Shown: piece after piece, positions 25,972 through 61,298 of the stretch
Layout: each line of letters opens with the position of its first letter
Numbering within the stretch: position 1 is the stretch's first letter
NCBI GenBank assembly: GCA_000004695.1
Contig: CM000150.2
Coordinates: 4,064,001 to 4,128,000 of the forward strand
Direction: 5' to 3'
Length of the DNA: 64,000 nucleotides
Origin: Dictyostelium discoideum
Taxonomy: Eukaryota
The notes under the pieces: generated by a model
The model's database searches: none
The model's input: only the letters and a program-made list of their open reading frames with translations
Told to the model about the DNA's origin: nothing
Position numbers and translations under genes: made by a program

Positions 25972-26727
25972 ATGAACAATGAAAACATAGAATCAATGGA
26001 TATTGAGCCTCCACCACCACCACCTTCACCACCACTTACAACAATAACATCATCATCATCGTCATTATCATTATCTTCATCATCATCAAACTTTAACAAA
26101 GAAGAATTAAAACTTTGGGTTGGTAGTTTACCAGATGAAGTAACAGAGTTAGAATTAAGAGAATTCTTTTCAAAATATTCAATTAACGAAATTAAATTAA
26201 CAGAGAATTCAAGTATACAAAAACAAAATGCATTTGTAACATTTTTCGATAAAGAATCAGCAAATAGAGCACGTGAAGAATTATCTCAACAATTATTTAA
26301 AAATCAAAGATTAAAAATCAATTGGGCAAGTGTAAAACCACAAAAATATTCTGATATGCCTGTAATAACAACAACAACAACGCCAACACCAACAACACCA
26401 CCATTAACAGCAACAGCAATAGCAATACCAACAACAACAGTATCAACACCACCTCATCATATTTCACAATTACATACGAAAACAATTCATATGGACCCAT
26501 ATAATAGTTTGAGTCATTATGGTACGGGTATTCATCATCATTATACTCATCCACAACCACCACAAACATTTTCAACTGGTTATCATTCAGTTTATTATGG
26601 TAATAAAGAAACTAGTGGTAAAGATAGTACTGAAACTAATAACTCCTCTGTAAATAATAAAGCATACCCACCAACACCACCAACCACAGTTTACCACCAC
26701 CACCACCACCACCACCACCACAAATGA
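25972..26727 (+). CDS. RNA-binding protein, N-terminal part: RRM1 (LWVGSLPDEVTELELREFFSKY...AFVTFFDKESANRAREEL) then T/P/H-rich low complexity. The frame ends in a (CAC)n tract
   Basis: ORF-track ORF in frame 1. Its stop TGA at 26725..26727 overlaps the ATG of the next ORF. See the finding on the frame break. Confidence 0.6.
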   Translation: MNNENIESMDIEPPPPPPSPPLTTITSSSSSLSLSSSSSNFNKEELKLWVGSLPDEVTELELREFFSKYSINEIKLTENSSIQKQNAFVTFFDKESANRAREELSQQLFKNQRLKINWASVKPQKYSDMPVITTTTTPTPTTPPLTATAIAIPTTTVSTPPHHISQLHTKTIHMDPYNSLSHYGTGIHHHYTHPQPPQTFSTGYHSVYYGNKETSGKDSTETNNSSVNNKAYPPTPPTTVYHHHHHHHHHK

Positions 26728-28037
26728 CAACAACATCAACAACAACTGTTGTATCAACACCACCACCACCTCATACACATCCACATACACATACACATCC
26801 ACACCCACACCCACATCCTCATTCATACCCTTACACTCATCAACATCATCCTCCCCCTCCTATTCCTATGCCCATTCCTATTCCTCTTCATCACCATCCA
26901 CATCATCCACATCATCCTCATCACCCTTCACCACCACCACCACCACCACCGCCACATTCATCACTTCATCATCATAGTAGTCATCATAGTAATCATCATC
27001 CAAAAATAATAAGTGATAATGATCCATATGTAAATAAAAAATTATTTTTGGGATCACTTGGTGATGAACCTGAAGAAGAAGTGCGTTATAGGTTTAGTAG
27101 ATTTGGTGAGATCGATTGTTTCGATTTAACAAGTAAAGGTGTCGCATTTGTTCGTTATTTAAAGACTGAGAGTGCAATTATTGCAAAAAGAGAATTGGGA
27201 TATAGATATAAGATACAATACGATAAAAGAGAACCAAGAGATCATTATCATTTCGATCCAAATGGACCATCTTCGTTCATTAGTGGTGGTGCTAGTCAAT
27301 ATTATGGTCCTGATTATTATTCTAAACAACAACAACAACCACAACAACAACCACAACAACCACCACTTTCATCTTCGACTTCGTCATCATTGTCATCATC
27401 TTCTTCACATCCAACACCACCACAACCATTACCATTACCATTACCACCATTACCACCAACGTCATCATCTTCCTTATCTACATTTTATAATGAACCTTTA
27501 TCAACAGAGGAATATAATCAATTTTTATTATTTTTAGAAAAATTACAACCAACTAGATCATTAATTAAAGTTTGTATATTCAAAAATAGTTTTAAATTAT
27601 TATTATCATCATCATTATTATTATTATTATAATTATTATCATCATAAATCCTAATATATATATGTACAACCCCACACATTCAAATATAGGAATCAAAAGA
27701 TTGGTTTATTTTACATTTAAAGAGTGGTAAACCAATAATTCAATTAATGAGCAAATATATTAATAATCAATTAACATTGACAACCGTTCAAAATAAGATT
27801 GAAATCATCTATTTAATCAATGATATTCTTTATTTTGGTGCATCAAGAAGGGGAAGTGAACAAAGTGATCAAATCTCTGATTTATTTGAACCATTTCTAC
27901 CAATTATTATTACTTCTTTCTCTAAAGAACCAATTCAAGTTCAACAAAAATTATTTCATGTATTGGATATTTGGGATTCAAGATATTTTTATCCTTATAA
28001 AGTTATTCAACATTTTAAAAATTTATTAAATAAATAA
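26658..28037 (+). CDS. Same RNA-binding gene, continued in frame 0: His/Pro-rich tract, RRM2 (KLFLGSLGDEPEEEVRYRFSRFGEIDCFDLTSKGVAFVRY), then after a phase-0 intron (27570..27689, GTTTGT...ATAG) a CID/RPR-like C-terminal domain (KIEIIYLINDILYFGASRRG); join 26724..27569, 27690..28037
   Basis: Frame 0 is open from 26658 (the first Met is at 26724). The splice joins ...PTRSLIK to ESKDWFILHLKSG.... The last exon ends TAA at 28035..28037. The RRM and CID motifs were recognised by eye. Confidence 0.55.
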
Positions 28038-28832: not shown

Positions 28833-29572
28833 ATAATATTAAATTTAATATTATTATAATTATTTACTTTAATTTTTAAAATGAATGATGGTTCATTATC
28901 TTTATTTTGTGGTTCAATTCTTTCAACGATTGTACTAATCCATTGATTTTTATAAAGTATATGAATTGGACCAATTGAAGTATCGTCATCAGTTAATACT
29001 GGGAAATCTCTTTCATCTCCATTATCATCAGTTCTAAAGAGTTTATTTTCTTTTTCTTTTTCTTTTTCTAATCTTTCCTTTTCTATTTGTTCTTCTTGTT
29101 TTTGCTCTGTTACATATTGATCTTTAGCTGAAATCATCTCTTTAATTAATTGTTTTCTACTTGCTGATAATGGTAAATTTAAATCTAATTTATATTGTGA
29201 TTGTGGTGTTGAAGTTGGCTGTTTTTGTTTTTGTTGTTGTAATAAAATTGCTCTTTCATCTTCATATTTAATTGGTTTAATTAGTGATGATTCTATTCTT
29301 TTTCCAACTAATTTACAACTTAAAACACACCAACATTTTGGTTTTGGTGGTATTGAAGTGGTTGGTATATCTAAAATATTTGGAGTTGCTGTTGATGGTG
29401 ATGATGTTATTGGTGGTGGTGTTTGTTGTTTATTCTTTGGGTCAACTTCTTCATCCAAGTGTGGTGAGGTTGATGTACTACTAAAATCTCTTTTTGTATT
29501 GATTGTATTATTAAAAAATTTATTTGAATTAATTTTTAATTTTCTAATTTTTATTATGTTATTACTAATCAT
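28193..29572 (-). CDS. Two-exon hypothetical protein, about 418 aa (complement(join(28193..28741, 28868..29572)))
   Basis: The upstream ORF (S/T/P-rich then KE-rich coiled segment) ends at ...FILKIK followed directly by GTAAAT. The intron is 28742..28867 and ends TTTAG. The downstream exon TPIKLSSEFTFSFESIHSTLDRLL...SIGFNDCPIDLALSKDSIVGCKEGRTNLEFPNGTYQLVLEID...VSYL stays in phase and stops at 28193..28195. Confidence 0.5.
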
Positions 29573-30300: not shown

Positions 30301-30303
<3 letters not shown>

Positions 30304-31092
30304 AGTTTTTCACAAAAAAAAAAAATTCACTCACTCCTCCAAAAATCAAACCAACAAACATTCAATGATAATATTTTAAATAATGACAACAACAACTACA
30401 ACAACAACTACAACATTGAAAATGGTATTGGTTTAATAGATGTATCATCATTTACAAATCTCTCAACTCCATTCTTAACATTTAAAAAAGATGCATTTTC
30501 AATTCCACCATCCGTATCTCCACCATTGTCACCAAGTCTTTCATTTGTTATTGCACCAACTCCGATTATTGCCTCTCCAATTGCTTTGTTGTCTTCATCG
30601 GTATCAAGTACACCATCTACCTCTCCATTTGCTTCTCCAATTAAACACTTTCAAGATCCTACTGATTCTAATTTAAATTATAACAATAATAATAATAATA
30701 ATAACAACAACAATAATAACAACAACAACAACGATAATAATAATAATTATAATAATAATAATAGTGGTACCTTTAGCTTTTATGATAGCATAAATAACAA
30801 CAATAATACTCAAGGATATTATTATTCTAATGGTTCATCATTATCATTATCATCGTCTTCATCATTATCATCTCAAAACTCTGGATACAGTGTTGAATCA
30901 TTCTATTCACCATCAAATTCATACTCTCCTTTTGATGATAGTATTCTCTCCCCTTCTTTGTGCTTAATTTCTCAATCTCCATCTCAGTTTTTATCATCTC
31001 ATTCACCATTTCAATCATTTTCACCACCACCAACACCATCACCATGTACTATTCATAATAACTTTAACAACAGCAACATTAATAAACAATCA

Positions 31093-31171
<79 letters not shown>

Positions 31172-31921
31172 GTAGTAATTTAATAACATCACCACCACCA
31201 AGTTCATTACCACATCAACAATGTCCAATTCAAGAGAATATTCGTAATGTAATTAATTATTTAGGATGTTGTTATAGATTTGGAAAAGTTGAAAAGAGTA
31301 CATTGGTAAAGTATTTGGATTTAGCATTCAATGATTTTGGTGTATCTGCCGAGTATTTCGCAAAGAGATCATTGGAAAAGGATGCAATCATTCCAGACGT
31401 TTATTGTAAAATGATGGATATGAACATTGATAATTTATTGAATGAATTGGTAAACTTTGGTTCAAAGAGACATTTCTATTCATTTGCAAGAAAGTATTCA
31501 TGTCTCGATTCAAGAAGTTACTTTGATGATTATATCGAAGGTACAATCATTAAACAAATCTTGATCGAAATTAAAACCACAACCGATACTGGTACTTTAT
31601 TGGTAGATAATGAAAAATTTAATGAAATCTATTCAGATGGTTTAATTTGTTTCAATGATAGCGAATTGTTAAACTCAAAAGGTTTCATTCCATCAGAAGC
31701 TTTACCATCGAATCATATCACCGAGAATGTTCTCTCAAAGAAGGATTCAAAAGCTGCCATCAACTATTTCAATTATTTAATTCATGGTTCGGTAAAATTA
31801 ATCATTGGTAGAATTGAATATACTTGTGTTGGTTCTGTTGATATCCTTCCAAATAGAAAGTTATGTGGTAGTTTAAAAAATAAATTCTTAAATGCCTATG
31901 CAATTCATCAACAATTGACTC

Positions 31922-31986
<65 letters not shown>

Positions 31987-32106
31987 AAACAACAAATTGG
32001 TAAAGAATTTACTTCTAAAATGTATGCTCTCAAAACTATGATAATGACTGCTTTTTATTATCACCTTTATCATTTCAGTTCATCCAATTTTGTATTACAC
32101 AAATAA
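30301..32106 (+). CDS. Hypothetical protein, 601 aa: N/S-rich N-terminal half, structured C-terminal domain, poly-Gln tract near the C-terminus
   Basis: Single long ORF. The (AAT)n and (CAA)n coding repeats are typical for this genome. I found no recognisable domain. Confidence 0.5.
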
Positions 32107-32585
32107 TTATTTTCACAGTTTATAAAAAAAAAAGAAAAAAAGAAAAAAGAAAAAAAAAAAAAAAACAAAAATAATATGTATAAATATATAAATAAATATA
32201 TTTATATCTACAAAAAAAAAAAAAAAATAACCACATAAAAAGAAAAACGTGATTAAAAAAAAAAAAAAAAAATTTTAAAAATATATATCTACAAAAATTA
32301 ATTTTGACTAATAACCTAATTGTTATTGTCCGACTGTTTAAAAAATAAAAAGATAAAAAATAAAAGATTTCTATAACTATTTATTTCAAAAGAAAGATTA
32401 ACAAGTTATTAAAATATATTAATTAGACCATCTATTTGTATAGATTAAAAAAATGAAATAATAATTGTTAAATTTATTTATTAATAATTTTTTTATTTTT
32501 TTTATTTTTTTTTTTCTAAAAATTTTATTAATTTATAACCTTTAAAATAAATATTTTTTAAATAATTATATTTCATTAATTAAAA

Positions 32586-32767
32586 ATGGATAAAAGTTTA
32601 GCAGAAAAAATAAAAAATGTGGATATTACCCCAAAAGAAATTTCCCATTTTAAAACAAAGGGTTTTATTCAAATAGATGATGTTTTTGATGTTAATTTAG
32701 TAGATCAAAAGTTGAAACACTTTTCGATGGAAAATTTCCAACTAATATATGGCCAGATGGTACTTAA

Positions 32768-32818
<51 letters not shown>

Positions 32819-33420
32819 TTTAATAATTATATTAGTAACCTTTCTTTATTAAATAAATTTTAGAATGGAATTATCGTAAAGGGTTATCAGTTGAAAATTC
32901 AACAAGAGAAATTGTTAATATTTGGAAGTGTGATCCATTTTTTGCTAAAATTATATTTAATGAAAATATTGGAAAAATGATTTGCGATTTAATGGGATGG
33001 TCAGGATGTCGTTTAGCACAAGACGAGTTATTTTGGAAACCACATTTAGGTGGTAGTGTAGGGTATCATCAAGATGGACCATATTTAGATTTTTTACCAG
33101 CTGAAACTATTGCAATATGGGTACCATTAAATGATGTTTCAATTGAAAATGGTACACTAGAATATGCAACTGGAAGTCATAATTGGAAAACTCCAAGTGG
33201 TATAATAGATGATTTTCATAATCCATTAAAATTTAAACTAAAAATGGAGGATGCTGCCATGATTGAAGGAATTGAAAAACCAGATATTCATGTGGTAACT
33301 TTGAAAAGAGGTGGAGTATCATTTCATCATGGTAAATTATGGCATGGTTCTTCAAAGAATCCAAGTTCTACCAAAGAGATGTGCTTTTCATTTCATACCA
33401 GAAAATTGTGTATTCAATGA
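32586..33420 (+). CDS. Phytanoyl-CoA dioxygenase (PhyH) family Fe(II)/2-oxoglutarate oxygenase, PHYHD1-like. Exon 1 is 32586..32759, exon 2 about 32864..33420
   Basis: Exon 1 (ITPKEISHFKTKGFIQIDDVFD) resembles the PHYHD1 N-terminus. Exon 2 has HQDGPYLDF, IWVPLNDVSIENGTLEYATGSH and FHHGKLWHGS (the HxD...H iron-binding motifs). The intron starts GTACTT at 32760. With the obvious TTTTAG acceptor at 32863 the phases do not match; see the finding. Confidence 0.7.
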
Positions 33421-33593
33421 TAATACTGGTTATTTTTATGGTCATTATAAATTCTTTGACAGTAATAGAGTTGAAGAATCATTCTTCCCAATTACTTATT
33501 CATCTTCAGGTAAAAGATCAAAGTGTTGTGATTATTTTTATTCTGATGATAGGATAATTAATAAATTTTAATTAAATATTGAAAGTATAAAAA

Positions 33594-33626
<33 letters not shown>

Positions 33627-34006
33627 AATAAAAATTAAATGTTTAGACTGCAAATCAATAACATTTATAAATTTAATTTCTTGTTAATTTAATTTTCAGG
33701 ATAAAAATATTATTTTAAATTTTTTTTTTCTGCCATATAAAAATCTCATTACGCAGCTCCCCTTAATTTTTTTAATCATAAAAAAAATTCTTTTTTTTAT
33801 TTTAAGATTTTTTTTTTATTTTTTTTTTTTAAAATATAGAAAAAGTTGGCACGTGGTTTAGATTTTTATATACTGATTCTTTGAAATGGTTTTTTTTTTT
33901 TTTTTTATTTTTTTTTTTTATTGTTTTTTTAAAACAAAAACCTTCTTTTTTCACTTTTACTTTTACTTTTTTTTTATTTTTTTATTTTATTTTATTTTTT
34001 TTAAAG

Positions 34007-34451
34007 ATGTCAAAAATATCAAATAAAATGAAAGCTTATGGGGGAATAGTATTCTTTTTTTTATTTATTTTTTTCAATAAAGTTAGTTGTCAATTGGTTA
34101 GAGATTCAATACCGAACCAATTGGATATAGAGAGTTTCTCACAACAACAAAGTTATTTATTTTATCAAGATACATCAAATTCAACAAAATGCTCTTATAC
34201 TTTAAGGTTTATTGTAAAAGATAACGATAGTGGTACATTAAGTTTAAAAAAACTTTTTTCAACAGATAGCCCAAATATTTTATACTCGACAAAAACTTCG
34301 ACATCAACGGTTTTAGTTGTTGAATTTAGTGGAATAATTCCTATTGGTTCCCACACTTCAAATTTAACGGCAATGTCATTATATCCACCAATTCGAATTG
34401 TCCAATCTGATTATAGTTTAACTTTAACTTGTTCATGTAATATTTTTTTGA

Positions 34452-34506
<55 letters not shown>

Positions 34507-37500
34507 ATAATAATAATAATTTATTTATAAAAAATAATAATAATAATAATTATATAAAATATTAATATTTTATTTTTCTTCTTATAAAAATAAATATAAA
34601 ATAAAAATAAATGATCAAAAAAAAATAAAAATTATAGTGGTTGATTCGTCAACATTAACAATAACAATTGATGATGTGATAAATTATGATACAAATATGG
34701 CATTTTATTCATCAATTAGAATTCATGGTATGGATTATCATAGATTTAATTCATTGGATTCTTTAGGTTCAGATATTTTTTTCCCATTCGCCAGAACTAA
34801 TATATTTGGATATAATTGGGATCCTTTAATATTTGAAAATCAAAGAAATTCAATTTTTACAATTTCAATTGTAGTTTCAGGTGTAATAATAAATTTAAAA
34901 ACAAAATCTTTTTATTTTAATGGTAAAAATCTATTTATCTTATTTATATTTAATATTATTGAAAAAAAAAAAAAAAAAAATTAATTAAATTATTATTATC
35001 ATAGTTCCATATCCAACAGCTCAAATTTATTATTTTTTTCCACAAAACATTATATCTACCCCTTTTAATGAATTCGGATTTCATTATTCCCCAGTGCTTT
35101 CTACCACTAGTAACACACAAACAGCAAAACCATATCAACTATTATTATCACCTAATAAATTATATACTTTTTCAAAACCAATTTCTGGTAAAAAAGGTAG
35201 AATGTCTTTTATTGCAGCTTTTCAGAATTCATATGGGTTAAATAACTTTTCACTTATCAGTCCACTTGAAGATCAGCCAAGAATATCATTACCTCTGAAT
35301 ATAAAAGGTACGTACTTTAATAATAATAATAATAATAATAAAAATAATAATAATGATTATTAATATTATTAACTGGGAAAAAAAAACTTTTAAAGAATTT
35401 TATAATGGTTCATATGGAAATCCTCAACTTATTTTGTCGTTATATGGTTTTGGTTCTATAAATATACCAACTTTGATACCATTATTTCAAGTGACATTTA
35501 CTGGTAGTTATTATAGATTTTTTGATAATCAATACAAGGTTGGAGTTGATAAACTTGATGCTGGTTGGCCATTTGGGTATATTAGTGGTAATCAAACAAC
35601 CTATGTTCACTCTGTTGACTTTTTAAGACCAATAAACTATTCAGCACTATCTATCATATATAGATTTGGAAGTACTTTACCAAATGAATTTTTTTATCAA
35701 TCTGTTGTAACCAACCTTGGTAAGTAAAATAACAATACTTTTTATTATTATTATTATTATTATTATTTAAACCTCTTGGTGATGAAATGCCATTATGATG
35801 ATTATTATTATTATTATTATTATTAATTAAAAACACATAATAAATTATTTACATTTAATTAAATTATTTTATAGTAACGGAAACAACCCAACCAATTTTG
35901 GTCAGTTATAGCTTCAAACGTTTAAAAGGAAAGAATTCAAATTATTTATTCACAGCAAATATAATTTCAAAGAATGGAGTAAAGAGAATTATATTTGATG
36001 ATATTGATTATGGTTTAAAAACATTAGTTTCAGGTTCAAATAAAAATGGTGTTTATGAAATTATATATACACCATCACAAAATTCATTCTCTGGGATAAT
36101 TTCTTTTTTATGTTATGACATTTATGAAAATAATTTCTACTATTTCCAAGACCAAATTGTTTCTTATGAACCATTTTTAGTTTTTAAAGTTCCTGATTGT
36201 CTTTCAAATTGTAGTTATTTTTATTTAAAATTTAAAAGTATATATAAATATATTAATTATTTGTTTTTTTTAATTTAGATATAAGCGTGGATAGTTTTGA
36301 TAACATCAGTTTCGCAAAGAATAATTTAAATTTATTAAATTCAGCAGGTTATAATACAATGTATTTAAATTCGAGTAAAATTGATCCTGATTCACAACTA
36401 GTACTAATTTTGATGGATCCAATTTCAAAATCATATCAAAGTGCTCAAGGTAATATTCTTTATGGTTCATTTCCAATTGTTTATGATTCAAATTTAAAAT
36501 TATTTACATGTGATTTCATTGTACCAAAAAATAATTTATTTGGTGAAGTTTCGTACTATATTAAATTTACAAATGGTGTTTTGACAAGTAATGAATTAGG
36601 ACCAAATACACCAAAATTATTAGTAAATGAAACATGTATGTATTTTTTTAATTTTTAAAAAATAAATAGTTTAAATTTTTATTTTTTTAACCTTTTTTTT
36701 TTTAATTAAATAAATTTAGATCTAGATAATCAAGGACCAATTTTTAGTTTATTAGTCCCGTTAAATAATGGAGTAATGGTTGATGATAATAGTAGGGAAT
36801 ATGGATATATTTTTAATATTACAGATGATCTTAATGGATTTAGTAGCGGTAGTATAACAGTAAAAGGTTCAATAGATAATTCAAAATATGTATTCAACTT
36901 TTCATTATCAGATGCAATGTATGGTAATAAATTTGAAAGTCAATATCAAATTTTAATTCCAGTTTCAAAACAATGTATATCACAAGTTTATATTATCACC
37001 AATGTAATTTTAAGAGATACAAATAATATTACATCAATTTATAATATTTATAGTAATAATCCAGACCCAACCATAACTCCATTTTTAAAATTTTATGATG
37101 ATGGTATTGGATCAACATATTTAAATATAATTTGTAATCCTCCTATACCAATTGATGAAGATTATCAACAATTAGTTTCTTTCAAACATTCAATTACAAA
37201 CTCAATTATTGATGTTGGTAAATTAAATAATTCAATTAGATTTGACTTTTCAATTGATACACCTAGAACAGGTATAAAAGATAATCAATTACCAATAGTT
37301 TATATAATTAGTGAAAAATTGGATAAAGTCGAATGCCTTTCAACTTTAGAACTAGTAGATAAAATATATGGAACTACAAATTACACATGTACAACTACAT
37401 TACCAATTGGTTTTGGTTATCCTGGTATTTTGATTTTTTCAATTTATGGTTTTATAAATAATGCAGGTTATTTTTTTGGTTATCCAACAGATACAATTGC

Positions 37501-38857
37501 TAAATTTTTTCCATCATCATATTATGTCAATATAAACTACCTTGTTGATGAAGAACCAATTATTACATCGACTGATAATATTTTTTCAACTGGTGGTAAT
37601 TTATTAATTTATGGTAAATCATTATCAAATACAAAACAAGTATCAATTTATTATTCTGAAACCAATGTACAAAGTACAATAGTTCAAGATGAAATATATG
37701 GATCAAGTGCAGTTTTAATCAATTCAATTTCGGAAACATCAAAACCATTTAAAATTCAAATAATTACAACTTCTGGTTTAAAATCAAATGAATATTGGGT
37801 AACTCCAATTTATTTTGAAACAACAACCCCAGTAATTCCAACTAATCCACCACAAAAATGTAGTGGTAATCCAGAATGTGGCGGTAAATCACAAGGTTAC
37901 TGTTCACCAAATGGTTGTATTTGTTTTTCACCTTGGATTGGTACAAGCTGTCAATCAAAAGTTATAGTTGTACCACCACCAATTGTAAATCCAAATGAAC
38001 CATCAACTAATATTATAACCAATTCAAGCAAAAGTGAAACATCATCGTTAGTTGGTGTAATTTCAATTGTTTCATTAAGAGAATTAGATCATAACAATAA
38101 AGTTATTAAAATTTTTAAATTTGAAAAATGGAATCAAACAAATTTAGAAAAGAATAAAAATATCTATTCAACAAGCATTAAATTTCAAGATAATAATAGT
38201 AATAACGATTGTTTTATAAATGTTGAAACTGAATGGTATGAAACATTAAGAAATATAACATTTGCAAATCAATTATTAGTAATGAATCCCTCAACATTAA
38301 AATATAATATAAACATTACAGCATATCCATTCCAATCGAAATTAAATACACTCCAATTAGTAATCAGAGCAAAACTAACTCAAAATGATTATAATGATGA
38401 TATATGCTCAAATCAAGAATTTGGTAAAACAGTTGCAGATAATTCAGATTTTATTCAATTATCAGTAAAAGATCATTCGTTATATGGTAGATTTGTTAAA
38501 AGAGGTATCGTAGATGGTAGAATTACATCAATTGGTAATGTTAAACTTAATGATTTAGATGATGAATCAAATTATTATACATCAGATTCATTCGTTGGTA
38601 TTGTAATTCCACAATACACAAATCTAATTCAACTAGATCCTGATTTTGGTTTATTGGTAGATAGTTCACCAACTGATTCAACATGTAAAAAAAGTGCATC
38701 ACTTTCAAAAGAAGCAAAGATTGGTATAATCGTAGGTTGTATTGGTTTTGTAATTGTTGTTGTAATAGTTGTAACTTTATGTGTAAAATATAAATATCAT
38801 ATTAGAAATTTAAAATCTGTTATTAAAATGAATCAAATCAAAGCGAATAAAAATTAA
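34007..38857 (+). CDS. Seven-exon gene, about 1399 aa: type I membrane glycoprotein with signal peptide, large extracellular region, EGF-like module (CSGNPECGGKSQGYCSPNGCICFSPWIGTSCQ), a single transmembrane segment (IGIIVGCIGFVIVVVIVVTLCV) and a short basic tail
   Basis: join(34007..34436, 34638..34922, 35005..35307, 35396..35719, 35875..36237, 36279..36635, 36720..38857). The donors are GTAATA, GTAAAA, GTACGT, GTAAGT, GTATAT and GTATGT, and the acceptors are all (T)nAG. All six introns are phase 1, and the frames of the ORF-track pieces are reproduced across every junction. Confidence 0.7.
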
Positions 38858-48717: not shown

Positions 48718-51700
48718 TTAATTTAACCAATTTAAATCAAATTTATAATTATAATGATTGTTTAGTTCTTTTTTTAAATGATCCACTAAATCCTTGTTAC
48801 TTGAAATGAAGAAAGAGGAAGAATTTTCAAATCTATTATTATTATCAAGAATATGGTTTGGTAATATTGATATTATTTGACTCTTATTATAATTATTATT
48901 ATTATTATTATTATTAATATTATTATTAATATTATTATTTTTATAATAATATTTTAAAATATGAATATTATCTTTGTTGATAGCTTGAGTGATAGCATAA
49001 GTTGTTATTTTAAATTGATTTGGATAATATTTTAAAAATAGATTACACATTTGAATATTTCCTTTTATAAAGTATTTAATAAAAATATTATCATTTTGAT
49101 TTCTGTATTCTTTATCTGCATTTTCTTCATCATTATTAAATAACAATTGACCAAATAAAATTTTTAAACTATCTTGAATCTCTGATTGTTTATAAATTTG
49201 ATTTAATTTTCTATAATCTATATTTACAATTTCTTCTTGCTCTTCTTCATCATCATCTTCATCCACATCATCTTCTTCTACTTCATCTTCTTCATCTTCT
49301 TCATCATCTTCTTCTTCTTCTTCTTCATCTTCTTCTTCTTCATCTTCATCTTCTTCCTGTTCTTTCTGTTGTTTCTGTTCTTGTTGCTGTTCTTGCTGTT
49401 GCTGTTGTTGATGATTATGTTGTTGTTGTTTTTTTTGTTGATTTAATAAAATTAAAACCAATTCTTCTAATAATTGTTTTCTTTGAATTAAAGTTAAATT
49501 TTGATTTATAAATTCTCTATATTTATTTTCATTCTTTTGAAAATAATTATTTAATAATTCAAAGAATCTAAAAGTGAACAATTTCATTTCAAATTTATTT
49601 TTATCAAATTTGAATCTAATTGGATATTTAACTTTTTCAAAATAATTTTCAAGTAAAAACTTTGTTTCTAAATAATGGTCACGATTTAATTTTGGTGATT
49701 GGATTTGTTTACTTTGAATATCATCTTCATTATTATTATCATCATCATCATCGTCTGTAGCTGTTGTTGTCGTAGTAATTGGATCTAGTTGTGGTTGTGT
49801 AATTGATGATGATGTTGTTGTTGATGATGATGATGGTGGTACTGGTATTATTACCATTTTATTTAAATCATTCATTTCAATTTCATAATTATTTAAAATG
49901 AATTTTGAAATTTCAAAACAACCACTCAGAATTGAACAAAAGTAAACAATTTTTTGAAATGGAGTTTGATAGAAATTGAATTCAATTAACCTTTGAATAT
50001 TATCAACATCCATTAATCTACAAGCCAATTTAAGAACACTTGCAGAGAATTTGAATGAGTTTACCAAGAATTGTGGTTTAAAAGATTTCATTAAAGAGAT
50101 CATTGCATGATTAGTTGGTGGTGTTGTAGTTGCCTCTGTTGAAGAATTTAAATCTTGAGTTGTCATCCAATTTGAAGATAACATTGGTTTCGATAAAGGA
50201 ATCATTGGAAACTGTTTAGCATTACCACCACCAGCAGTGGTTTCATAGAGTTTACTAGTTAATAGAATGGTTGAAGCTGGTGATTTATGAATTGGTGTTG
50301 TGTGTGGAAATAATTCATTTTGATCGAAATGACCACTTTGATTCTCTTTATTTAAATAAACTTGAATGAATTGTAATTGTTTGAAAAATAAATCAATATT
50401 TTTAATCTCTAAACAATATTGTAAATAAACATTCATTAAAACTTGTAATACAATTCTATAAATACCACGTTTCTCTTCGAATAATATAATATAATTATGA
50501 ACTAATTGATATATAATTTTTTCAATTATATCATTTAATGAATTTGAAAATTCAAAATTATTATTATTATAATTATCTTTTAAAGTACGACCTAAAATAT
50601 AATTATAAGTGAATACATTTGTATCTAAATAATCCTTAATATCCGGTATACCATCGCCACCACCACCGCCACCAATATTACCAACACCAGAATTTGTGCC
50701 ATATTCAGTTGAACAATTATAATAATTTGAATAATCAGATTGAATAATAATTGAAATGAATGGATTTGTAAGTATACATTTTGATAATTTTGTTGACCTA
50801 ATTTGAAGATAATAGAATGAATGAAATAATGTATGATTTATTGAAATTGAAAGTTGATTTATTAATTTAAAATAAATCTTTTCAACCAAATCAATTGAGA
50901 TACCTTTAATTTGAATTAACTTTTCAAAGTAGTAATTGAAAATTTCATTATACGCTTGTTTAACTGATTTATTATTTGAAGCAACTAAATTGGATTGTCT
51001 ATATTTACAAACCAACTTTTCAATGATATCTATTATGGTATTACTATTGACTTTATTGATTTTATTTGTACAACCACCTATTCTATTCGCAATGAATTGA
51101 TCATAATGAAAGATGTTACGATCCTTATCGAAAATGTATCTACATTGTTTTAATCTACTGAATTCGAAATAATCATTTGCGAAAATCTGTTGTTCTACCA
51201 TATCATTATTTATCAATAATAAATGAATCATTACAATATCAGAGAACAACATTGACTCTATTAAAAAGAAGAATAAAGAATCTTTATTCATCAATGATAA
51301 ATCCAATCTTAATTCCAATACTTGATTAATTGGTATTGATTTCATTACAATCTCTTTAATAAATAATTCCAATGAATTATATGAAAAACATGAAAATCCA
51401 TATGAATTATAAAATTCAATAATTTTAATAATTGATTCTTCATTTAAAATTATATTACCACTATTCTCTTCACTACAACCACAGTTACCATCACTTGAAT
51501 TACTAATACCAATATTATTATTATTCTGATCTTGAATGAAATCATTTAAATGAAAAAATTGAATTTTTAAATTTATTGGTGATGAAATTAGTATCTTTAA
51601 ATTTTGAATATCACAATTCTTTATAGCCTCAACCCATGTATTTTTGTATATTTGTGCTCTAATTGAATTCAAACCAGCCATTTCAAATAGACTTGGTAAA

Positions 51701-52485
51701 ATTGTATCCTTTTCAGTATAAATCGCTAATTCCAATGACTGAATTTCAAATTTATTAAAACTATATACATTCTCACCAAGTATTATTTTCTTTAACCATG
51801 GCAATTTAATATTTGTAATCCAATCAATTGTCTCTCTATCTCTTATAATTATCTTCTCCTTAATAAATCCATTACCATCTACACCAATACTAATTAAATC
51901 AATTAAAATTGGATTCCAAATTAATTGATTCTCTTTAATTTCTTTAATAATTCTTTGGAATATATCTTTAAATGATAAATTATTACAATCACTACAACCA
52001 TTATTATTATTATTATTATTATTATAATCAACGATTTCACAATTTGTTTGAGTTGTTGTAAATTTAATAAATTGATGAAACACTTTTAAGTATCTAAAAA
52101 AATTAATAAATTCAATTTGATAATTATAATTAATTTGTTCTATAATTTGATTCTTATAAATTGATTCTAATTCAATCTCATTTATTAATTCTCTATATTT
52201 ATATATATATTCTTTATAGTATCTATTACTATTTGATTCAATTATTATTAATTTTTGTAATTCTTTTTCTTCATTTATTTCTTGTAATTTATTATTATCA
52301 CAATTATTATTATTATATTTTCTTATTATCACTAATAAATATTTCAATTCTTCAATTGATAATTTAATAAATGATTCTTCATCTTCTAAAAAATCAATAT
52401 TTGTTTTAATAACTAAATTTAATTCCATTAATTTACATTTAGTTTTTAAACATTTTAATGATTTAAATGTTTTAAAATCAATAAA

Positions 52486-52584
<99 letters not shown>

Positions 52585-52633
52585 ATTATTATTATTACTA
52601 TATCTAATTCTTTTTTGTGGTGGTTCTTCATTA

Positions 52634-52710
<77 letters not shown>

Positions 52711-53162
52711 GTTATTATTATTATTGTTATTATTACTATTATTATTATCTGGTAATATTAATACTTTATTATTATTATTATTATTTTTATTTTGAAAATT
52801 TAAACTATTAATTATATAATAAATCATTTCTTCTTTAAAATTATTATTTTTTAATGCAAATGAGAATGATTTAGTTTGTATAATTTCATCAATTATTAAA
52901 TTGAATTCTTTATATGTTTTATTAAAAGTTGATATTAAATATGAAACTATTGTTGGGTTTGAATTTAAAATTGCAAATTCAAAAGTTGATGGATAAACTA
53001 TAATAGAGTAAGGATCATTGGTAAGAATTTCCAATACACAAATACAATTACATTTCACTGCTAAAAATGTTAAATCTGTAATTTCAACTTCTGTTCTCTT
53101 CTTTTCTAATAACAAATGGATAATTTCTTTTAATATTTCTAAAGAAGAAGAGGATGAGGATG

Positions 53163-53260
<98 letters not shown>

Positions 53261-53547
53261 GAATTTATTGATAAATTTGAAATCGTTGTAAATAATATAT
53301 CTATTGAATCTTTATCAATTTGTATATAATCATTATTTGATTGTAATTTACATTTTATTAATGAAAATAACTTTTTATTTATCATCCAACTTAATGAGTG
53401 AATATCTTTAAACTTTAATCTATTATCTGCATGAATTTGTTTTGGGTCATCGTATTCTACCCATTCTGTATTTTGAATATGTTTTATAATACAACGTAAT
53501 AAAAATTTATTATGAAAAACTTTCCAAAAGAAATCTTCATTATTCAT
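48718..53547 (-). CDS. Large hypothetical protein (1609 aa), paralogue B of the tandem pair, with additional poly-Ser, poly-Asn and acidic E/D-rich inserts
   Basis: Single ORF. It is homologous end to end with 42977..47104, for example FFWKVFHNKFLLRCIIKHIQNTEWVEYDDPKQIH, NIQRLIEFNFYQTPF, YYPNQFKITTYAITQAINKDNIHILKYYY and FDLNWLN. Confidence 0.7.
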
Positions 53548-53609: not shown

Positions 53610-54817
53610 TTTATTGGCTAATATGTTCTAATTTTTTTTATTATTTTTATTATTTTTTTTTTTTATTACTTAAACACTATTTTAATTTTATTATTTATTA
53701 TTATTTATTATAATTTTTTTTTTTTTTTTTTTTAATAATAATCATAAATTTTAAAAAATTGAATTAAAAAAAAAAAAAAAAAAGTAAAAAGTAATTATAA
53801 AAAAATTTTATAAGAAAAAAAAAAAAAAAGTATAAATACAAAAAAATTATAAAAATAAAAAAAAATAAAATTAAAAAAAAAATTTTTTATGACGTTGATC
53901 TCAGATTAATTATTTTTTTTTTTATTTTTATTTTTAATTTTATTTTTATTTTTATTTTTATTTTTTTTTTTTTTACACAGCTGCGTTACTGAGTGATATA
54001 TTTTTTCAAAAGATTTTTAATTATTCTTCAGACTTTTATTTCGCCATTTTAACCCAAATTAATTAGTGGCACTGGCATTTATGGAAATTAAGAAAAAATT
54101 ATGATCCAGGATGTGTTTAAACTGGGAATTTTTTTTTTTAATTATTTTTTTTTTTTTAAATTTCTTTCGGCAATTTAAAAAAAAAAAAAAATCTTTTAAA
54201 ATGTCAAAAAAATAAATTAATTAATTAAGAATTCTTATATTTCATCAAAAAAAAAAAACCATAATGAACAAATATAACCGTTAGGTGGCTTATGAGATTT
54301 ACATAATCATTAGGTCATTAATATTTTTTTTTTTTTTTTATTTTTTTTTTAAAACAAATATAAAAGAATTAATTATTTATTCTGAATTTTTTTATTCTTT
54401 CTTCTAGAATTTTAAAAAAAAAAAAAAAATATCCATTATTTATTATAAAATAATAAATTGTTTTTTTTTTTTTTTTTGTTTTGATAAATTAAATGTTTTA
54501 AAAGTTGATTTTTATGCCTCTATTAAATTTTAATGGTTTTTTTTTTTTTTTTTTTCAACTAAACTATTCATTCTAACAATGGACAATTAATTAAAAAAAA
54601 AAAAAAAATAATTAAAAATATTTTTTAATTTTTGTGTTTTTGCTATTCTATCTAGTAAATAATTGTTTTTTTTTTAGATGGAAATTTTTGAAAAATATAG
54701 GATTTTCACCAAAGGAAATATTTATATATTTTTTTAATTACCTCATCTCAATTTAGGATGTGAACTAGTTTTATTTAATTTATTTTATAAATGATTTTTT
54801 TGTATCTGAATTTATTA

Positions 54818-54833
54818 AAAAAATTTAAAATCC
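54818..54833. repeat. Target-site duplication (3'-side copy): aaaaaatttaaaatcc
   Basis: Identical to 61176..61191. It is directly followed by the element's terminal T-run (poly(A) on the element strand). Confidence 0.8.
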
Positions 54834-54930
54834 TTTTTTTTTTTTTTGAATTGGATAACGCAATTATTATTTGCTTCTCCTTGAGATGCTAGATCTCATT
54901 TTATTTTTTTTTTTTTTTTACAGGGTCTTT

Positions 54931-55164
54931 TTGATTAAAACATCTTTTTTGTCCAAACTTTTTTCTAAATCTTTTTTTATTTTATCGTCTGGTTCGTGAT
55001 TGATGTTTATGACGTATTTGAATTGTTTTTTTTTTTTTTTAATTGAGTTTTATCCACAATTTCGCTTATTTTTTGTAGGCATTTGTGTTGCTTAATATTT
55101 GTGGTGTTGTTTGTGATTTTCATTTTATTTTCTTTCTATCTTTTTTATTTTTCTGATTAACTTG

Positions 55165-55170
<6 letters not shown>
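54931..55170. repeat. 3' copy of the TRE5 B-module, including the first ~65 codons of ORF1; direct repeat of 59801..60060
   Basis: About 230 bp is nearly identical between 54931..55170 and 59801..60060. Each copy abuts a T-run. The 5' copy has a roughly 30-bp insertion before aattaacttgggtt. Confidence 0.85.
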
Positions 55171-55219
<49 letters not shown>

Positions 55220-55223
<4 letters not shown>

Positions 55224-58200
55224 TTATAGAAAGTACTGAGTGAATTATTGTTTTTTTTGAGATGTTTAGGAAGTTCTATTGCGTGAAGAGGTGAGTTCCA
55301 TTGTCTGCTAAATTGTAATAGCTTTAGCGAGATTAGTGAGTCTAATTTATTTTGTTCTTCTGGCCGTTGCTTTGATTTGATTCTTAATGTTTTGTTTATA
55401 ACCGCTTGTGTCCTGTCCCATGCAGCTCTTTGTGTTTTAATTAGTTCACGTATGACTTGTTGTCTGTGAATTATTATTTCTTTTTCATCGTGAATGAGTT
55501 TATTTCTTTTGTGCCAGATTTTATCGAATATAATAGCTATTAAATTGGCTACTAGTGCAATTTGTAGATGGTTTAAAATCTTCACATTCCAGGTGTGAGT
55601 GGTGTGTCCACACTTAGTTAGGGTGTAGTTGAAGATTTCTTGTGTGTTTTTGATGTGGGCTTTGCAGTTGAAGAATATATGTTCTGAGGTCTCATCTTCC
55701 CCACACTGTTGGCATGGCATGTTGTATATTTTTGGTAGTGCTTTCAGTGTGTATCTCCATAATAGATCTCTACCTTTCATGTTTATTATTTTTTTGATTT
55801 CTTTAAATGGAAGGTGTTTGCTATTAATTTTGGTCATTATTTCTTTTTGGCCAGGAGTTGGTATGAATTTGTTGTGTTCAGGAGATTGAGTTGTCATCAT
55901 ATCTTCGTATATTTTTTTTAATTTTGGGAGGTGTTCGTAGTGTGTTTGTTTATTTTGTGGAGTTTTTAATTGGGTCCATGCTTGCTTGCATTGCCAGTGT
56001 AGTTGTAGTTGATTTTGTTTTGTTGTTGTTTTGTTGTTGTTGTTGTTTTTGAGTTCCTCTTCCCACAGTTTTATATATGAACTAGGAGTGTTACTTACTC
56101 TTTGGTGGAGGTATCTTTCGAATAACCATGCTTTCTGTGCTAGTTCTCTTGTCTTCAGGTTCCATAAGTTTAGGCCACCATTGATATAGTTGTTTTGTCT
56201 TCTTTGTAGTGAAAGAGAGTTTTTAGATTTTGTGTTGAAAACGAATTTTACGATGTTATTTTCAATACTATTGTGTTGTGGTGTGGTGTTGATGTAAGTG
56301 TGGAACGTTAACTGAGATAGTGCATATGTTTTTGCCATTATGAGTCTGCCCATATAGGTTGATGAAGTTGAGTTCCATGTTACTAGTTTAGCTCTGATGT
56401 TGTCTGAGATTGTATTGATTTTGGATTTGATACCCTTATTGTTGAAGTCAAAGCCGAGGTACCTTTCGTTTGATTTTATGACGGTGTATAGCGTTCTGGT
56501 GTTCCATTTGAAAGTGATACACGAGCATTTGGTTTGGTTTATTTTTGCGCTGGTTGCTTGGCAAAACTTCTTGATCCATTCATTCATGAGGAAATGGTCC
56601 ATAAAGTTGTATGCTATTGTTGCTGTATCATCGGCGAACTGTAGTATTTTAATGGTTTCTTTGGTTACACCATTGATGCAGCGGTCATTTATTATAGTAG
56701 TTGCCATGCATTCAACCACTAATGCGAAGATAGTGGGAGAGATAGGATCACCTTGTTTGGTTCCTCTTTTTGATGTAAAGCTTTTAGATAATGAGTTATT
56801 GATGTACACTGATGTTTCTGATTCATTGAGTAAGTTCATTATTGTGAGGACCATTTTGAGTGGTAGTTTTAGATGTGCAAGAGTACGTAGAATGGCGTTA
56901 TGTGAGATTGAATCGAATGCTTTTTCAAAATCATAAAATGTTATGATTGGTTCCATATCCTCTTTTGTGTTAATCTCTCGTTTTATTATTTCTATTGTTG
57001 AGTTTAAGGTGATGATGTTATCGTGCAGTAGTCTTCTTGGTACGAATCCAGTTTGGAATGGTGAGATTATTTTGTTTAAGAACTTCAGGATCCTATTGTT
57101 GATTATTTTCGAATAGATTTTGTAATCGACATTTAGAAGTGTTATTGGTCTATAATTATCCAGGTTGTTTGGGTCTCCTTTGTTTTTATATATAGTAATC
57201 AATATCCCTTGTTTGAAGTCCTTTGGGATTGTTGTGTTCCAGAAGTGATTGTATAGTTTTGATATTATTGGTAGAATTTCATTAATGTGGTTTTTGTAAA
57301 ATGTTGGAAGGAGTCCATCTTTACCAGGTGCTTTTCCTTCTTGTATTTTTTCAATGCCTAGTCTGATTTCATATCCTTCTATTGGTTGATTAATTTCGTC
57401 CAATATCTTTTGATCAATCCTTTTATTGAATGTTTTTAGGAGTTCGTGGTGAGTGTCTTCGTTGCATTCTCTCTTCTGGTACAGGTTCTCGTAATATCTT
57501 CTTGCTACTTCGAGGATATCCTCGTGTTTTGTTACCAAACAATTGTTGCTTGGATCTAGAATTTGAGGGATTTCATTTGTCTTTCTTTGGACTTTTAACC
57601 TTCTGGTTAAGTATTTTGATGGTGTTTCTTTGTTGTTGATGTGGGTGTTGGTTTGGTTTGCTTGTTTTATTCTTACTTGTTCCTTTAGAATATTGTTGAT
57701 CTCTTCTTTAAGGAAGATTGCTCTTGAATCTTTGGCTGTTTCGAGTTTTTCTGCGAGTTCTTTTAGTTTGTTTTTGGTTTTATTGCTTTCTCTAATTTCT
57801 ATATTAATTGACAGTTTCTTTATTTCATCTTTTAGTTTCAACCATTGTTCGCAAATGTTTAATTTGTACCATTTGCTGGTGTTCTCTTCGAATTTTTTAT
57901 TGTAGTATTTAATTGTTTTATTAATTTTGAGGCTGGTTGAATTCATTTTGAGAGTTTCTAGGTTTTGTCTCCATAGTCTTTCTCCTTTCTTTTGTTGCTC
58001 GTATTCTGGTATTTTTAATTCAATGATTACCATGTTGTGATCAGATTTTAATTTGATTTCCTTAGTAGTAACTATTGGGTTTAGATGGAGTATCTTCTTT
58101 GAGACAAAGACCCTATCGATGGTTGATTTGTTTCTTGGAAATGTGATTCCATTCTTAATTTCTGTAAATTCGAATTCGTCGAAGATTGTTTTAATATATT

Positions 58201-58441
58201 TGTTAAGGTTATTATCCACTGAACAGTCTACATTGAAGTCTCCAGTTATAATATCGCTGTGTAGTATTTCTTCTGTGAGATTTTCCTTATACCATTCATG
58301 TCTTTCGTTTGACTTTGCTGGGGCATAAATGGTTGTGCATTTGATCTGTGTTTTTGCAATCATCCATTCGGAAGATATAATTCTTTCGTTTATTGTTTTT
58401 GTTGTTGTTTTTATTTGGGTGTTGATGATGATTTGTGACAC
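55220..58441 (-). CDS. Retrotransposon ORF2: APE-type endonuclease, reverse transcriptase and zinc-finger domain (1073 aa from the first Met)
   Basis: It has endonuclease motifs (GDFNVD, SDHNMV), RT motifs (YRPITLLNVDYKIYSKIINNRI, FDFEKAFDSISH, QGDPISPTIFAL, LQFADDTA) and a CQQCGEDETSEHIFFNCKAH finger. The frame may be open upstream of the Met, towards ORF1. Confidence 0.85.
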
Positions 58442-58653
58442 CCCTTGTCCTGTTTTATCAATTGGTGCGTGGTGTGTTATTTTGTTTTTATATTGTTGAT
58501 TTATTGAGTAAATTTTATTTGTTTTTATATTTGTTTCAGTTAGAAGTGCTGCGTCCAGCTTGTTGTTGTCTAAAACGGTGTTTATTATGCTGGCAGATTG
58601 GATGGTGTTGGATCCTTGGACGTTCCAAACACCTATTCTTATTGTGTTTTTCT

Positions 58654-59988
58654 TTATAGTTTTATTTGGGGTAGATTTTTATCTACCTTTTGAAGTTTCT
58701 GGTTTATTTTGTCTTCTAACTGATCTTTACTTTGTTCGTTGTGTTGTTGGTCTTGTGTGTTTGTGGGGTTTTTTGATTTATTGATTTGTTTTAGAATTTC
58801 CTTGTTGAAGTTGTCTATATCTTCATCCATTTTTGTTTTTATGCTTTTTTGTCCATATTCACCCAATTTTGGTTTGACTGGTGTTTTGTTGGTCTTGTTT
58901 GTTTTGTCTTGTTGTTTCTTTTTTGGTGTGTTTAACAATTTACTTGGTGAATCGATAATTTTCGATGGTGTACCATAGGTTGGGCTGAAACTCATGATAT
59001 GTTTTATTGGAGAGGAGAAGAACCATTGATTTGAAGGGATTGAAAGTGGGAATTCTATTTTTCTTATTGCATCAGTGTTTGGGCTGGTGAAGTCGAAGAT
59101 ATCATTTGCCTCTCTAAGTTTTTCTTCCGTTGTTAGTCCCTTTGTTTCGCCGTGTTGTTTTATTGGTGTATTGTATGGAGATGGTGGTTCGATAGGTTTT
59201 TCTGATTTTGTTTTAATTTCTTGATTGTTTATCGATTGTGTATTGATCTCATTCTCTATTCTTGTTAGTTCATCTACGTTTTCTAGTGATGCTTCTATTA
59301 CCTTTTGAGCTGTATCATCTAGGGCCATAAATGTTTTATCATTAGATGAGGATGTGATTGGTGGGATAATGATTGTTCTTTTTCCTTGTTTTGGTATTTG
59401 TTCTGATGTAAATTGTGGTTGTTGTTCATCTGATTGTTTTTTATTTTTGTTTTCTTCTTGATTTTCTGGTAATGAGGTTTGATCTCTCCATCCTTTGTTG
59501 GAGTGTCCAATTAATGTTAAATTGTCTAGTTCAATGATAGTGTCAAATTCTTCTACGACTCTTTTCACTGTTTTGATAATTAGAGTTTCGCCTTTAATTT
59601 CTGATTTAATTAGTTTACATCCTTCATTTTCTATTACCCATTCTATTTCTGTGAGTGATTTATACCAATCAAAATCTGTATACATATTTTTTGGTCTTAT
59701 AGTGGTTATAAATTGTCCTTTTAATTCTGCATCAAACATATTTACAAAATAGATTACTGTACTAATACTGTCTGTGAGAATTTTGAATGTATTATTACTT
59801 TTGATTAAAACATCTTTTTTGTCCAAACTTTTTTCTAAATCTTTTTTTATTTTATCGTCTGGTTCGTGATTGATGTTTATGACGTATTTGAATTGTTTTT
59901 TTTTTAATTGAGTTTTATCCACAATTTCGCTTATTTTTTGTAGGCATTTGTGTTGCTTAATATTTGTGGTGTTGTTTGTGATTTTCAT
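58654..59988 (-). CDS. Retrotransposon ORF1 (444 aa), basic and K/Q-rich
   Basis: ORF immediately 5' of ORF2 on the same strand. Its ATG lies inside the B-module. Confidence 0.75.
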   Translation of the reverse strand: MKITNNTTNIKQHKCLQKISEIVDKTQLKKKQFKYVININHEPDDKIKKDLEKSLDKKDVLIKSNNTFKILTDSISTVIYFVNMFDAELKGQFITTIRPKNMYTDFDWYKSLTEIEWVIENEGCKLIKSEIKGETLIIKTVKRVVEEFDTIIELDNLTLIGHSNKGWRDQTSLPENQEENKNKKQSDEQQPQFTSEQIPKQGKRTIIIPPITSSSNDKTFMALDDTAQKVIEASLENVDELTRIENEINTQSINNQEIKTKSEKPIEPPSPYNTPIKQHGETKGLTTEEKLREANDIFDFTSPNTDAIRKIEFPLSIPSNQWFFSSPIKHIMSFSPTYGTPSKIIDSPSKLLNTPKKKQQDKTNKTNKTPVKPKLGEYGQKSIKTKMDEDIDNFNKEILKQINKSKNPTNTQDQQHNEQSKDQLEDKINQKLQKVDKNLPQIKL

Positions 59989-60064
59989 TTTATTTTCTTT
60001 CTATCTTTTTTATTTTTCTTTAAAAAGTTAAAAATCTGGAAATTTTCTAATTAACTTGGGTTCC

Positions 60065-60107
<43 letters not shown>

Positions 60108-60110
<3 letters not shown>

Positions 60111-61175
60111 TCTTTTTTATATGAAAAATGAAATAATCAAAAAAAGAGATTGTTGTTGTTGTTTGTTTTTTTCGATCTGATTATTTTTTGCTTTTTTTTT
60201 GAAAATTTTGCTACGCAAAATTCTCAAAACGAAACAAATAATAAATTACAATAAAGTAAAAAGATGGCTTTTTAAAATAGTTTATTTATTTATTTATTTG
60301 TTTTTTAAGTCTTTTTTATATGAAAAATGAAATAATCAAAAAAAGAGATTGTTGTTGTTGTTTGTTTTTTTCGATCTGATTATTTTTTGCTTTTTTTTTG
60401 AAAATTTTGCTACGCAAAATTCTCAAAACGAAACAAATAATAAATTACAATAAAGTAAAAAGATGGCTTTTTAAAATAGTTTATTTATTTATTTATTTGT
60501 TTTTTAAGTCTTTTTTATATGAAAAATGAAATAATCAAAAAAAGAGATTGTTGTTGTTGTTTGTTTTTTTCGATCTGATTATTTTTTGCTTTTTTTTTGA
60601 AAATTTTGCTACGCAAAATTCTCAAAACGAAACAAATAATAAATTACAATAAAGTAAAAAGATGGCTTTTTAAAATAGTTTATTTATTTATTTATTTGTT
60701 TTTTAAGTCTTTTTTATATGAAAAATGAAATAATCAAAAAAAGAGATTGTTGTTGTTGTTTGTTTTTTTCGATCTGATTATTTTTTGCTTTTTTTTTGAA
60801 AATTTTGCTACGCAAAATTCTCAAAACGAAACAAATAATAAATTACAATAAAGTAAAAAGATGGCTTTTTAAAATAGTTTATTTATTTATTTATTTGTTT
60901 TTTAAGTCTTTTTTATATGAAAAATGAAATAATCAAAAAAAGAGATTGTTGTTGTTGTTTGTTTTTTTCGATCTGATTATTTTTTGCTTTTTTTTTGAAA
61001 ATTTTGCTACGCAAAATTCTCAAAACGAAACAAATAATAAATTACAATAAAGTAAAAAGATGGCTTTTTAAAATAGTTTATTTATTTATTTATTTGTTTT
61101 TTAAGTCTTTTTTATATGAAAAATGAAATAATCAAAAAAAGAGATTGTTGTTGTTGTTTGTTTTTTTCGATCTGA
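60108..61175. repeat. Tandem array of 199-bp units (5 full units plus a 73-bp partial), the A-modules of the retrotransposon 5' UTR
   Basis: Unit starts (aagtcttttttatatgaaaaatg...) are at 60108, 60307, 60506, 60705, 60904 and 61103. The period is exactly 199 bp and the copies are near-identical. The last copy is truncated at tctga (61175). Confidence 0.9.
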
Positions 61176-61191
61176 AAAAAATTTAAAATCC
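61176..61191. repeat. Target-site duplication (5'-side copy): aaaaaatttaaaatcc
   Basis: Identical 16-mer directly abutting the truncated A-module, 35 bp before the tRNA gene. Confidence 0.8.
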
Positions 61192-61225
61192 AAATTTGGT
61201 TAAAAAAATTTTTATTCTCATGTTA

Positions 61226-61298
61226 GCTCGATTAGCTCAGTCGGCAGAGCGTGGTGCTAATAACGCCACGGTCGCAGGTTCGATCCCTGCATCGAGCA
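61226..61298 (+). tRNA. tRNA-Ile (anticodon AAT), 73 nt
   Basis: GCTCGAT TA GCTC AGTCGGC AGAGC G TGGTG CTAATAA CGCCA CGGTC GCAGG TTCGATC CCTGC ATCGAGC A. The acceptor stem is 7 bp (GCTCGAT/ATCGAGC). The D-arm carries the A box (TAGCTCAGTCGG). The anticodon stem is 5 bp with loop CTAATAA, giving anticodon AAT. The T-arm is GCAGG/CCTGC with the B box GGTTCGATCC. Confidence 0.9.

Follow-up and report, generated by a model that had tools for sequence, protein, structure and literature searches.

The window, a stretch of 64,000 nucleotides of Dictyostelium discoideum chromosome 1, carries single-exon ORFs identical to the AX4 proteins DDB_G0270048, DDB_G0270720 and DDB_G0271020. The locus described here is bordered upstream by a Brr2-type helicase gene on the minus strand and downstream by a minus-strand gene which, when modelled at 29572–28193 with one intron, is exactly DDB_G0270044. 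These identities mark the window as the AX4 chromosome 1 reference. Between these neighbours two open frames are found on the plus strand. The upstream frame (coordinate modulo 3 = 1) runs from an ATG at 25972 to a TGA at 26725–26727 and encodes 251 aa, as seen in both the ORF list and a three-frame translation, in agreement with the first-pass annotation of this DNA, in which the frame of the first RRM extended to that same TGA. The downstream frame (coordinate modulo 3 = 0) has its last stop, a TAA, at 26658–26660 and is open from 26661 to 27629, with a stop at 27630. This frame had been described as carrying the second RRM and the CID, which it does, and as open from 26658, which must be moved to 26661 given the position of the TAA. 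The two open frames overlap by 64 nt (26661–26724), with an (ACC)9 tract at 26693–26719 within the overlap that is read as His9 in the upstream frame and as Pro9 in the downstream frame. Conceptually joining the frames and splicing out 27570–27689 gives a protein of 648 aa. The features of the locus are as follows.

25972..26692, plus strand: exon 1, part upstream of the break, frame with coordinate modulo 3 = 1, collinear with the orthologous genes
26113..26316, plus strand: RRM1, aa 48–115 (Pfam RRM_1)
26694..27569, plus strand: exon 1, part downstream of the break, frame with coordinate modulo 3 = 0
26725..26727, plus strand: TGA ending the frame with coordinate modulo 3 = 1, out of frame in the corrected gene
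27036..27227, plus strand: divergent second RRM (KKLFLGSL...YRYKIQYDK; Pfam RRM_1, 21.7 bits)
27531..28013, plus strand: CID, split by the intron; aa 521–641 of the corrected protein (Pfam CID)
27570..27689, plus strand: sole intron, 120 nt, GT..AG, 82.5% A+T, with identical junctions in annotated orthologues
27690..28037, plus strand: exon 2, main part of the CID, with the stop TAA at 28035–28037

Pfam analysis of the joined protein found RRM_1 at aa 48–115 (whole-protein E-value of 1.6e-16), a CID at the C-terminus (E-value of 2.2e-18) and a second RRM that is weak, scoring 21.7 bits where the cut-off is 20.7. These domains, together with the continuous ORF found in orthologues, bear out the earlier proposal that the two halves are parts of a single RRM-RRM-CID gene. 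The splice across 27570–27689, also proposed in the first-pass annotation, holds as well, with the frame kept and with junctions (AAA/GTTTGTAT...ATATAG/GAA) that are the same in the annotated orthologues. The gene encodes an ordinary RRM-RRM-CID protein whose one unusual trait, long His/Pro/Thr/Ser linkers, is common in the D. discoideum genome.

The CID is a domain that binds the C-terminal domain (CTD) of RNA polymerase II. Compared with solved structures, the CID of this protein is closest to that of RPRD1A (E-value of 1.2e-5), followed by RPRD1B (about 1e-3) and Rtt103 (about 0.03). The likeness to RPRD1A/RPRD1B and yeast Rtt103 lies in this domain, but in those proteins the CID is N-terminal and there is no RRM. 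The best non-dictyostelid matches to the D. cf. discoideum orthologue (P0001) were U2SURP/SR140-type proteins with the architecture RRM-RRM-Surp-CID, and the alignments covered mainly the CID. U2SURP/SR140 (RRM-Surp-CID) shares with the Dictyostelium protein the N-terminal RRMs and the C-terminal CID; however, a Surp module was not detected by Pfam in the window protein or in the dictyostelid orthologues P0030–P0032, while it is present in the distant matches P0036–P0054, and the Dictyostelium protein has long low-complexity linkers in its place. The termination factors SCAF4/SCAF8, Nrd1 and Seb1 also combine a CTD-interaction domain and an RRM in one polypeptide. In these proteins the CID is N-terminal and the domain order reversed, and they are likened to the protein described here by domain content. 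From its domains, the protein is predicted to be nuclear, to bind RNA and to dock on the RNA polymerase II CTD.

To compare the locus with its counterparts, syntenic loci were taken from further assemblies via the cluster members of the neighbouring gene. The comparison set comprised six assemblies, three from D. discoideum, two from D. cf. discoideum and one from D. citrinum.

L004, GCA_054883475.1, D. discoideum: product of 648 aa
L005, GCA_054859355.1, D. discoideum: product of 668 aa
L006, GCA_054859385.1, D. discoideum: product of 665 aa
L007, GCA_054859205.1, D. cf. discoideum: product of 645 aa
L001, GCA_054859235.1, D. cf. discoideum: product of 607 aa
L002, GCA_054859145.1, D. citrinum: product of 588 aa

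All six were found to have one called, uninterrupted gene between the Brr2 gene and the DDB_G0270044 orthologue, and for each of the six product lengths there is exactly one single-intron model that gives it, with junctions as at 27570–27689 of the window. Identity to the window over 11.4 kb is 99.6% for L004, compared with 87–94% for the wild isolates. The six belong to PRJNA1300491, whose assemblies were built from long Nanopore reads together with short Illumina reads, and the D. discoideum strains of that project are AX2-214, CR116C and OT3A, of which AX2-214 is the sole laboratory strain (Holland et al., PNAS 2025; PMC12745789). As L004 is nearly identical to the window and AX2-214 is the only laboratory strain in the project, L004 is most probably AX2-214. 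Both Ax2 and AX4 descend from DdB, and their axeB deletion is the same (PMC4374526).

When the joined sequence was used as query, a protein search returned three proteins, all of them full-length, single-chain orthologues: those of D. cf. discoideum (P0001, 607 aa), D. citrinum (P0002, 588 aa) and Cavenderia fasciculata (P0003, 622 aa, with an RRM plus a CID). An AX4 protein was not among the three; the same search also missed the products of L004–L007, and its result therefore says little about the AX4 annotation. RRM1 and the CID are joined in one chain in P0003 and in the dictyostelid orthologues P0030–P0032, and the RRM2 motif is kept in P0030–P0032. Codon differences from the orthologues within RRM2 amount to 5–16 synonymous against 0–6 non-synonymous, and because they are mostly synonymous the downstream frame is under purifying selection in the clade.

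Across the 2,066 nt of the gene, DNA alignment of the window with L004 showed only three differing positions, as listed here with their states in the other assemblies.

26666, plus strand: A in the window, C in 6/6 other assemblies; Tyr instead of Ser
26692..26693, plus strand: frame-break site; C present in 6/6 other assemblies (GTTT[C]ACC, codon TCA = Ser) and absent from the window
26748, plus strand: G in the window, C in 6/6 other assemblies; Val instead of Leu

The reading frame is thus broken in the window and intact in six assemblies, and at all three sites the window is alone in its state. With the C restored, the junction reads ACA GTT TCA (CCA)9 CAA ATG, or Thr-Val-Ser-Pro9-Gln-Met, in a single frame. 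The window version at the break is GTTTACCACC, without the C, and the version carrying it is GTTTCACCACC; the corresponding peptides which tell the two apart are ...ASPPTPPTTVSPPPPPPPPPQMTTTSTTTLVSTPPPP... and ...AYPPTPPTTVYHHHHHHHHHK. Among the six assemblies the copy number of the ACC tract varies in frame between strains, from approximately 1 to 11 units. When the sequences are aligned, the break reads as a missing first base of the ACC tract and not as a repeat-unit slip, since a slip of whole units is a multiple of three and would be frame-neutral. The first-pass annotation had placed the break inside the repeat tract; the break is real and the dual His/Pro reading stands, but the lesion itself is to be assigned to the first base of the tract, at 26692/26693.

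It is considered probable (about 0.85) that the break represents a one-base omission in the Sanger-era (2005) AX4 chromosome 1 reference and that the real gene is intact and encodes 648 aa. Eichinger et al. 2005 is reportedly the source of this Sanger-era D. discoideum AX4 reference genome. The locus would then hold one two-exon gene with one 120-nt intron between the Brr2 helicase gene and DDB_G0270044, and the apparent frame break would result from the reference lacking a single C between 26692 and 26693. Base miscalls at 26666 and 26748 would flank the omission, and together the three would show that the reference is of poor quality locally, in a C-rich stretch. Among the explanations put forward in the first-pass annotation was a single-base indel in the assembly, and it is the one favoured here given the extra C in six independent assemblies. 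Between 23191 and 34605 (11.4 kb), L004 and the window otherwise differ only in the lengths of A/T homopolymers in non-coding DNA. Most of 29187–53900 again differs from the AX2-like assembly only in homopolymer lengths, with the remainder of the differences in a retrotransposon. For three random sites to fall within 83 bp of 11.4 kb, P = 1.6e-4; three discrepancies this close together are so improbable by chance that they point to poor local shotgun sequence and not to independent events. The C in L004 is not the typical Nanopore artefact, since it is an extra rather than a missing base, lies outside homopolymers and is common to five further assemblies. All three reference states are therefore probably base-calling or assembly errors and not mutations of AX4.

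This case resembles base-calling or indel errors known from Sanger-era reference genomes in being a single-base discrepancy in a C-rich low-complexity stretch that splits a conserved ORF, and in being unique to the reference, adjacent to two miscalls and absent from a near-isogenic re-assembly. It differs in that the error is here deduced from other assemblies and not from AX4 reads. Published work agrees with a reference error: in mutation-accumulation lines derived from AX4, 1,916 of 1,917 candidate substitutions relative to the reference were common to several lines, and these shared substitutions were ascribed to reference errors, to differences in the ancestor clone or to mutations arising during growth of the starting culture (PMC3466296). 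A collection of proteins searched by exact match contained neither the products of the broken version (the 251-aa ORF1, the 302-aa ORF2, the spliced product from ATG 26724 and the exon-2 ORF) nor those of the corrected version (648 aa, 553 aa if unspliced, and 668 aa), and so gives no vote either way. The literature on dictyBase frameshift and sequence-error notes and on programmed frameshifting in Dictyostelium held nothing specific to this locus.

It should be noted that the A/T homopolymers were always shorter in the AX2-like, Nanopore-based assembly, by 1–18 nt. The sites concerned are 25881, 28795, 32809, 33596, 33905, 34455, 39139, 41183, 42535, 42606, 42924, 47114, 47197, 55167 and 61554. 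This shortening looks systematic, due either to under-calling by long reads or to over-extension in the reference, rather than biological.

Of the other explanations, a real allele deserves the most attention, although it too is judged unlikely. The reference would be correct, with the AX3/AX4 lineage carrying a one-base deletion and two nearby substitutions, and the product would stop after 251 aa (RRM1, then His9-Lys as its tail), so that AX4 would be naturally null or hypomorphic for this gene. In its favour, the comparison assembly is not AX4 itself but what is taken to be AX2-214, and a very recent lesion would account for the otherwise intact downstream ORF just as well as an error would. 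However, three lineage-unique changes would be needed in 83 bp while the remaining 11.4 kb shows only homopolymer-length differences, which is the same improbable clustering (P = 1.6e-4) noted above. Nitrosoguanidine is a mutagen in the history of AX3 and its expected spectrum is G:C>A:T, which is not the spectrum of the changes here, namely C>A, loss of C and C>G. The measured mutation rate of 2.9e-11 per site per generation also weighs against such a cluster (PMC3466296). If the allele were real, AX2 and the wild isolates would be intact and AX3/AX4 broken in a conserved RRM-RRM-CID gene, and the two laboratory strains in widest use would be distinguished by a natural loss-of-function allele of a gene for an RNA-binding protein putatively associated with the RNA polymerase II CTD.

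The explanations that accept the window sequence and join or separate its frames by other means fare far worse. Programmed recoding, in which the frames would be joined at the CAC/CCA tract, either in the mRNA by transcriptional slippage or during translation by −1 ribosomal frameshifting, is suggested by their overlap across a triplet repeat, but slippage by triplet units leaves the frame unchanged, and a scan of the upstream frame over 26600–26725 for a slippery heptamer of the form X XXY YYZ found none, so that the overlap lacks this element. Neither the six relatives nor dictyostelid orthologues at a greater distance show the two-frame arrangement, and in all of them the junction is in a single frame in the DNA; as the extra base is present in the relatives' own DNA, recoding is unnecessary, and the slippage put forward earlier is considered extremely improbable. 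Two separate genes can be drawn mechanically, one with RRM1 only and the next, from ATG 26724, with RRM2 and the CID, as this ATG overlaps the TGA at 26725–26727. However, the junction has no A+T-rich spacer or promoter-like region, with a GC content of 36–49% at the break compared with 8–19% in the flanking intergenic DNA and 17–20% across the real intron. A check of other dictyostelids for two independent genes, which had been proposed in the first-pass annotation, found a single chain at the locus in all orthologues examined; with one continuous ORF in every orthologue, and RRM1 and the CID in one chain in P0003 and P0030–P0032, the two-gene reading is refuted. The last of these explanations is an unconventional or very short intron that removes 3n+2 nt and so restores the frame, for which the segment GTAAAT...ACAG at 26650–26689 is a candidate. 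This segment, however, is 40 nt long (1 modulo 3, the wrong phase) and coding-like, and the homologous stretch is translated in relatives, which makes such an intron highly implausible. A frame-joining intron needs a length of 2 modulo 3, and all GT..AG segments of this phase were enumerated. The only candidates use a donor at 26148, inside RRM1, and this agrees with the earlier statement that no plausible intron fits. These rejected candidates are 515–866 nt long with 63–70% A+T, compared with 82.5% for the real intron.

Should the one-base omission be the correct reading, the true 648-aa protein cannot be obtained from the AX4 reference as it stands here. Annotation based on AX4, proteomics searches, RNA-seq quantification and knock-out design would then miss or truncate a conserved RRM-RRM-CID gene. 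The repair would consist of one C added after 26692, with 26666 and 26748 changed to C. More generally, where the 2005 Sanger reference shows a frame break beside a low-complexity tract, the 2025 long-read assemblies should be consulted before the break is read as biology such as recoding or pseudogenisation.

A number of other differences were noted elsewhere in the window. Downstream of DDB_G0270044 (window 30301–38857; L008 1115–9638; L005 1–4298; L006 1–4305) the annotation differs between assemblies. This stretch is called as one 2,161-aa gene in the AX2-like assembly and as separate genes of 586/626 aa, 299 aa (PhyH) and 1,389/1,647 aa in the wild isolates. Within a 1,609-aa ORF at 48718–53547, an in-frame difference in the length of an ATT repeat relative to the AX2-like assembly was found at 52486–52488, and is an ordinary microsatellite slip.

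The region 54000–61298 contains a non-LTR retrotransposon on the minus strand, with an ORF1 of 444 aa (58654–59988) that is multi-copy in AX4 and an ORF2 of 1,073 aa (55220–58441) with a reverse-transcriptase domain. The element ends approximately 50 bp upstream of tRNA-Ile(AAT) (61226–61298), a TRE5-A-like position. At the same site the AX2-like assembly (L009) lacks 55284–58416, which is most of ORF2. The 5′ end of the element contains a 199-bp tandem repeat (60082–61175), whose copy number is 5.5 in the window and 2.5 in the AX2-like assembly. T/A substitutions form a second small cluster of differences from that assembly at 53999–54022 and 55252, in the repeat-associated flank of the retrotransposon, and this cluster is likely to represent differences between copies of the element or mis-assembly of copies.
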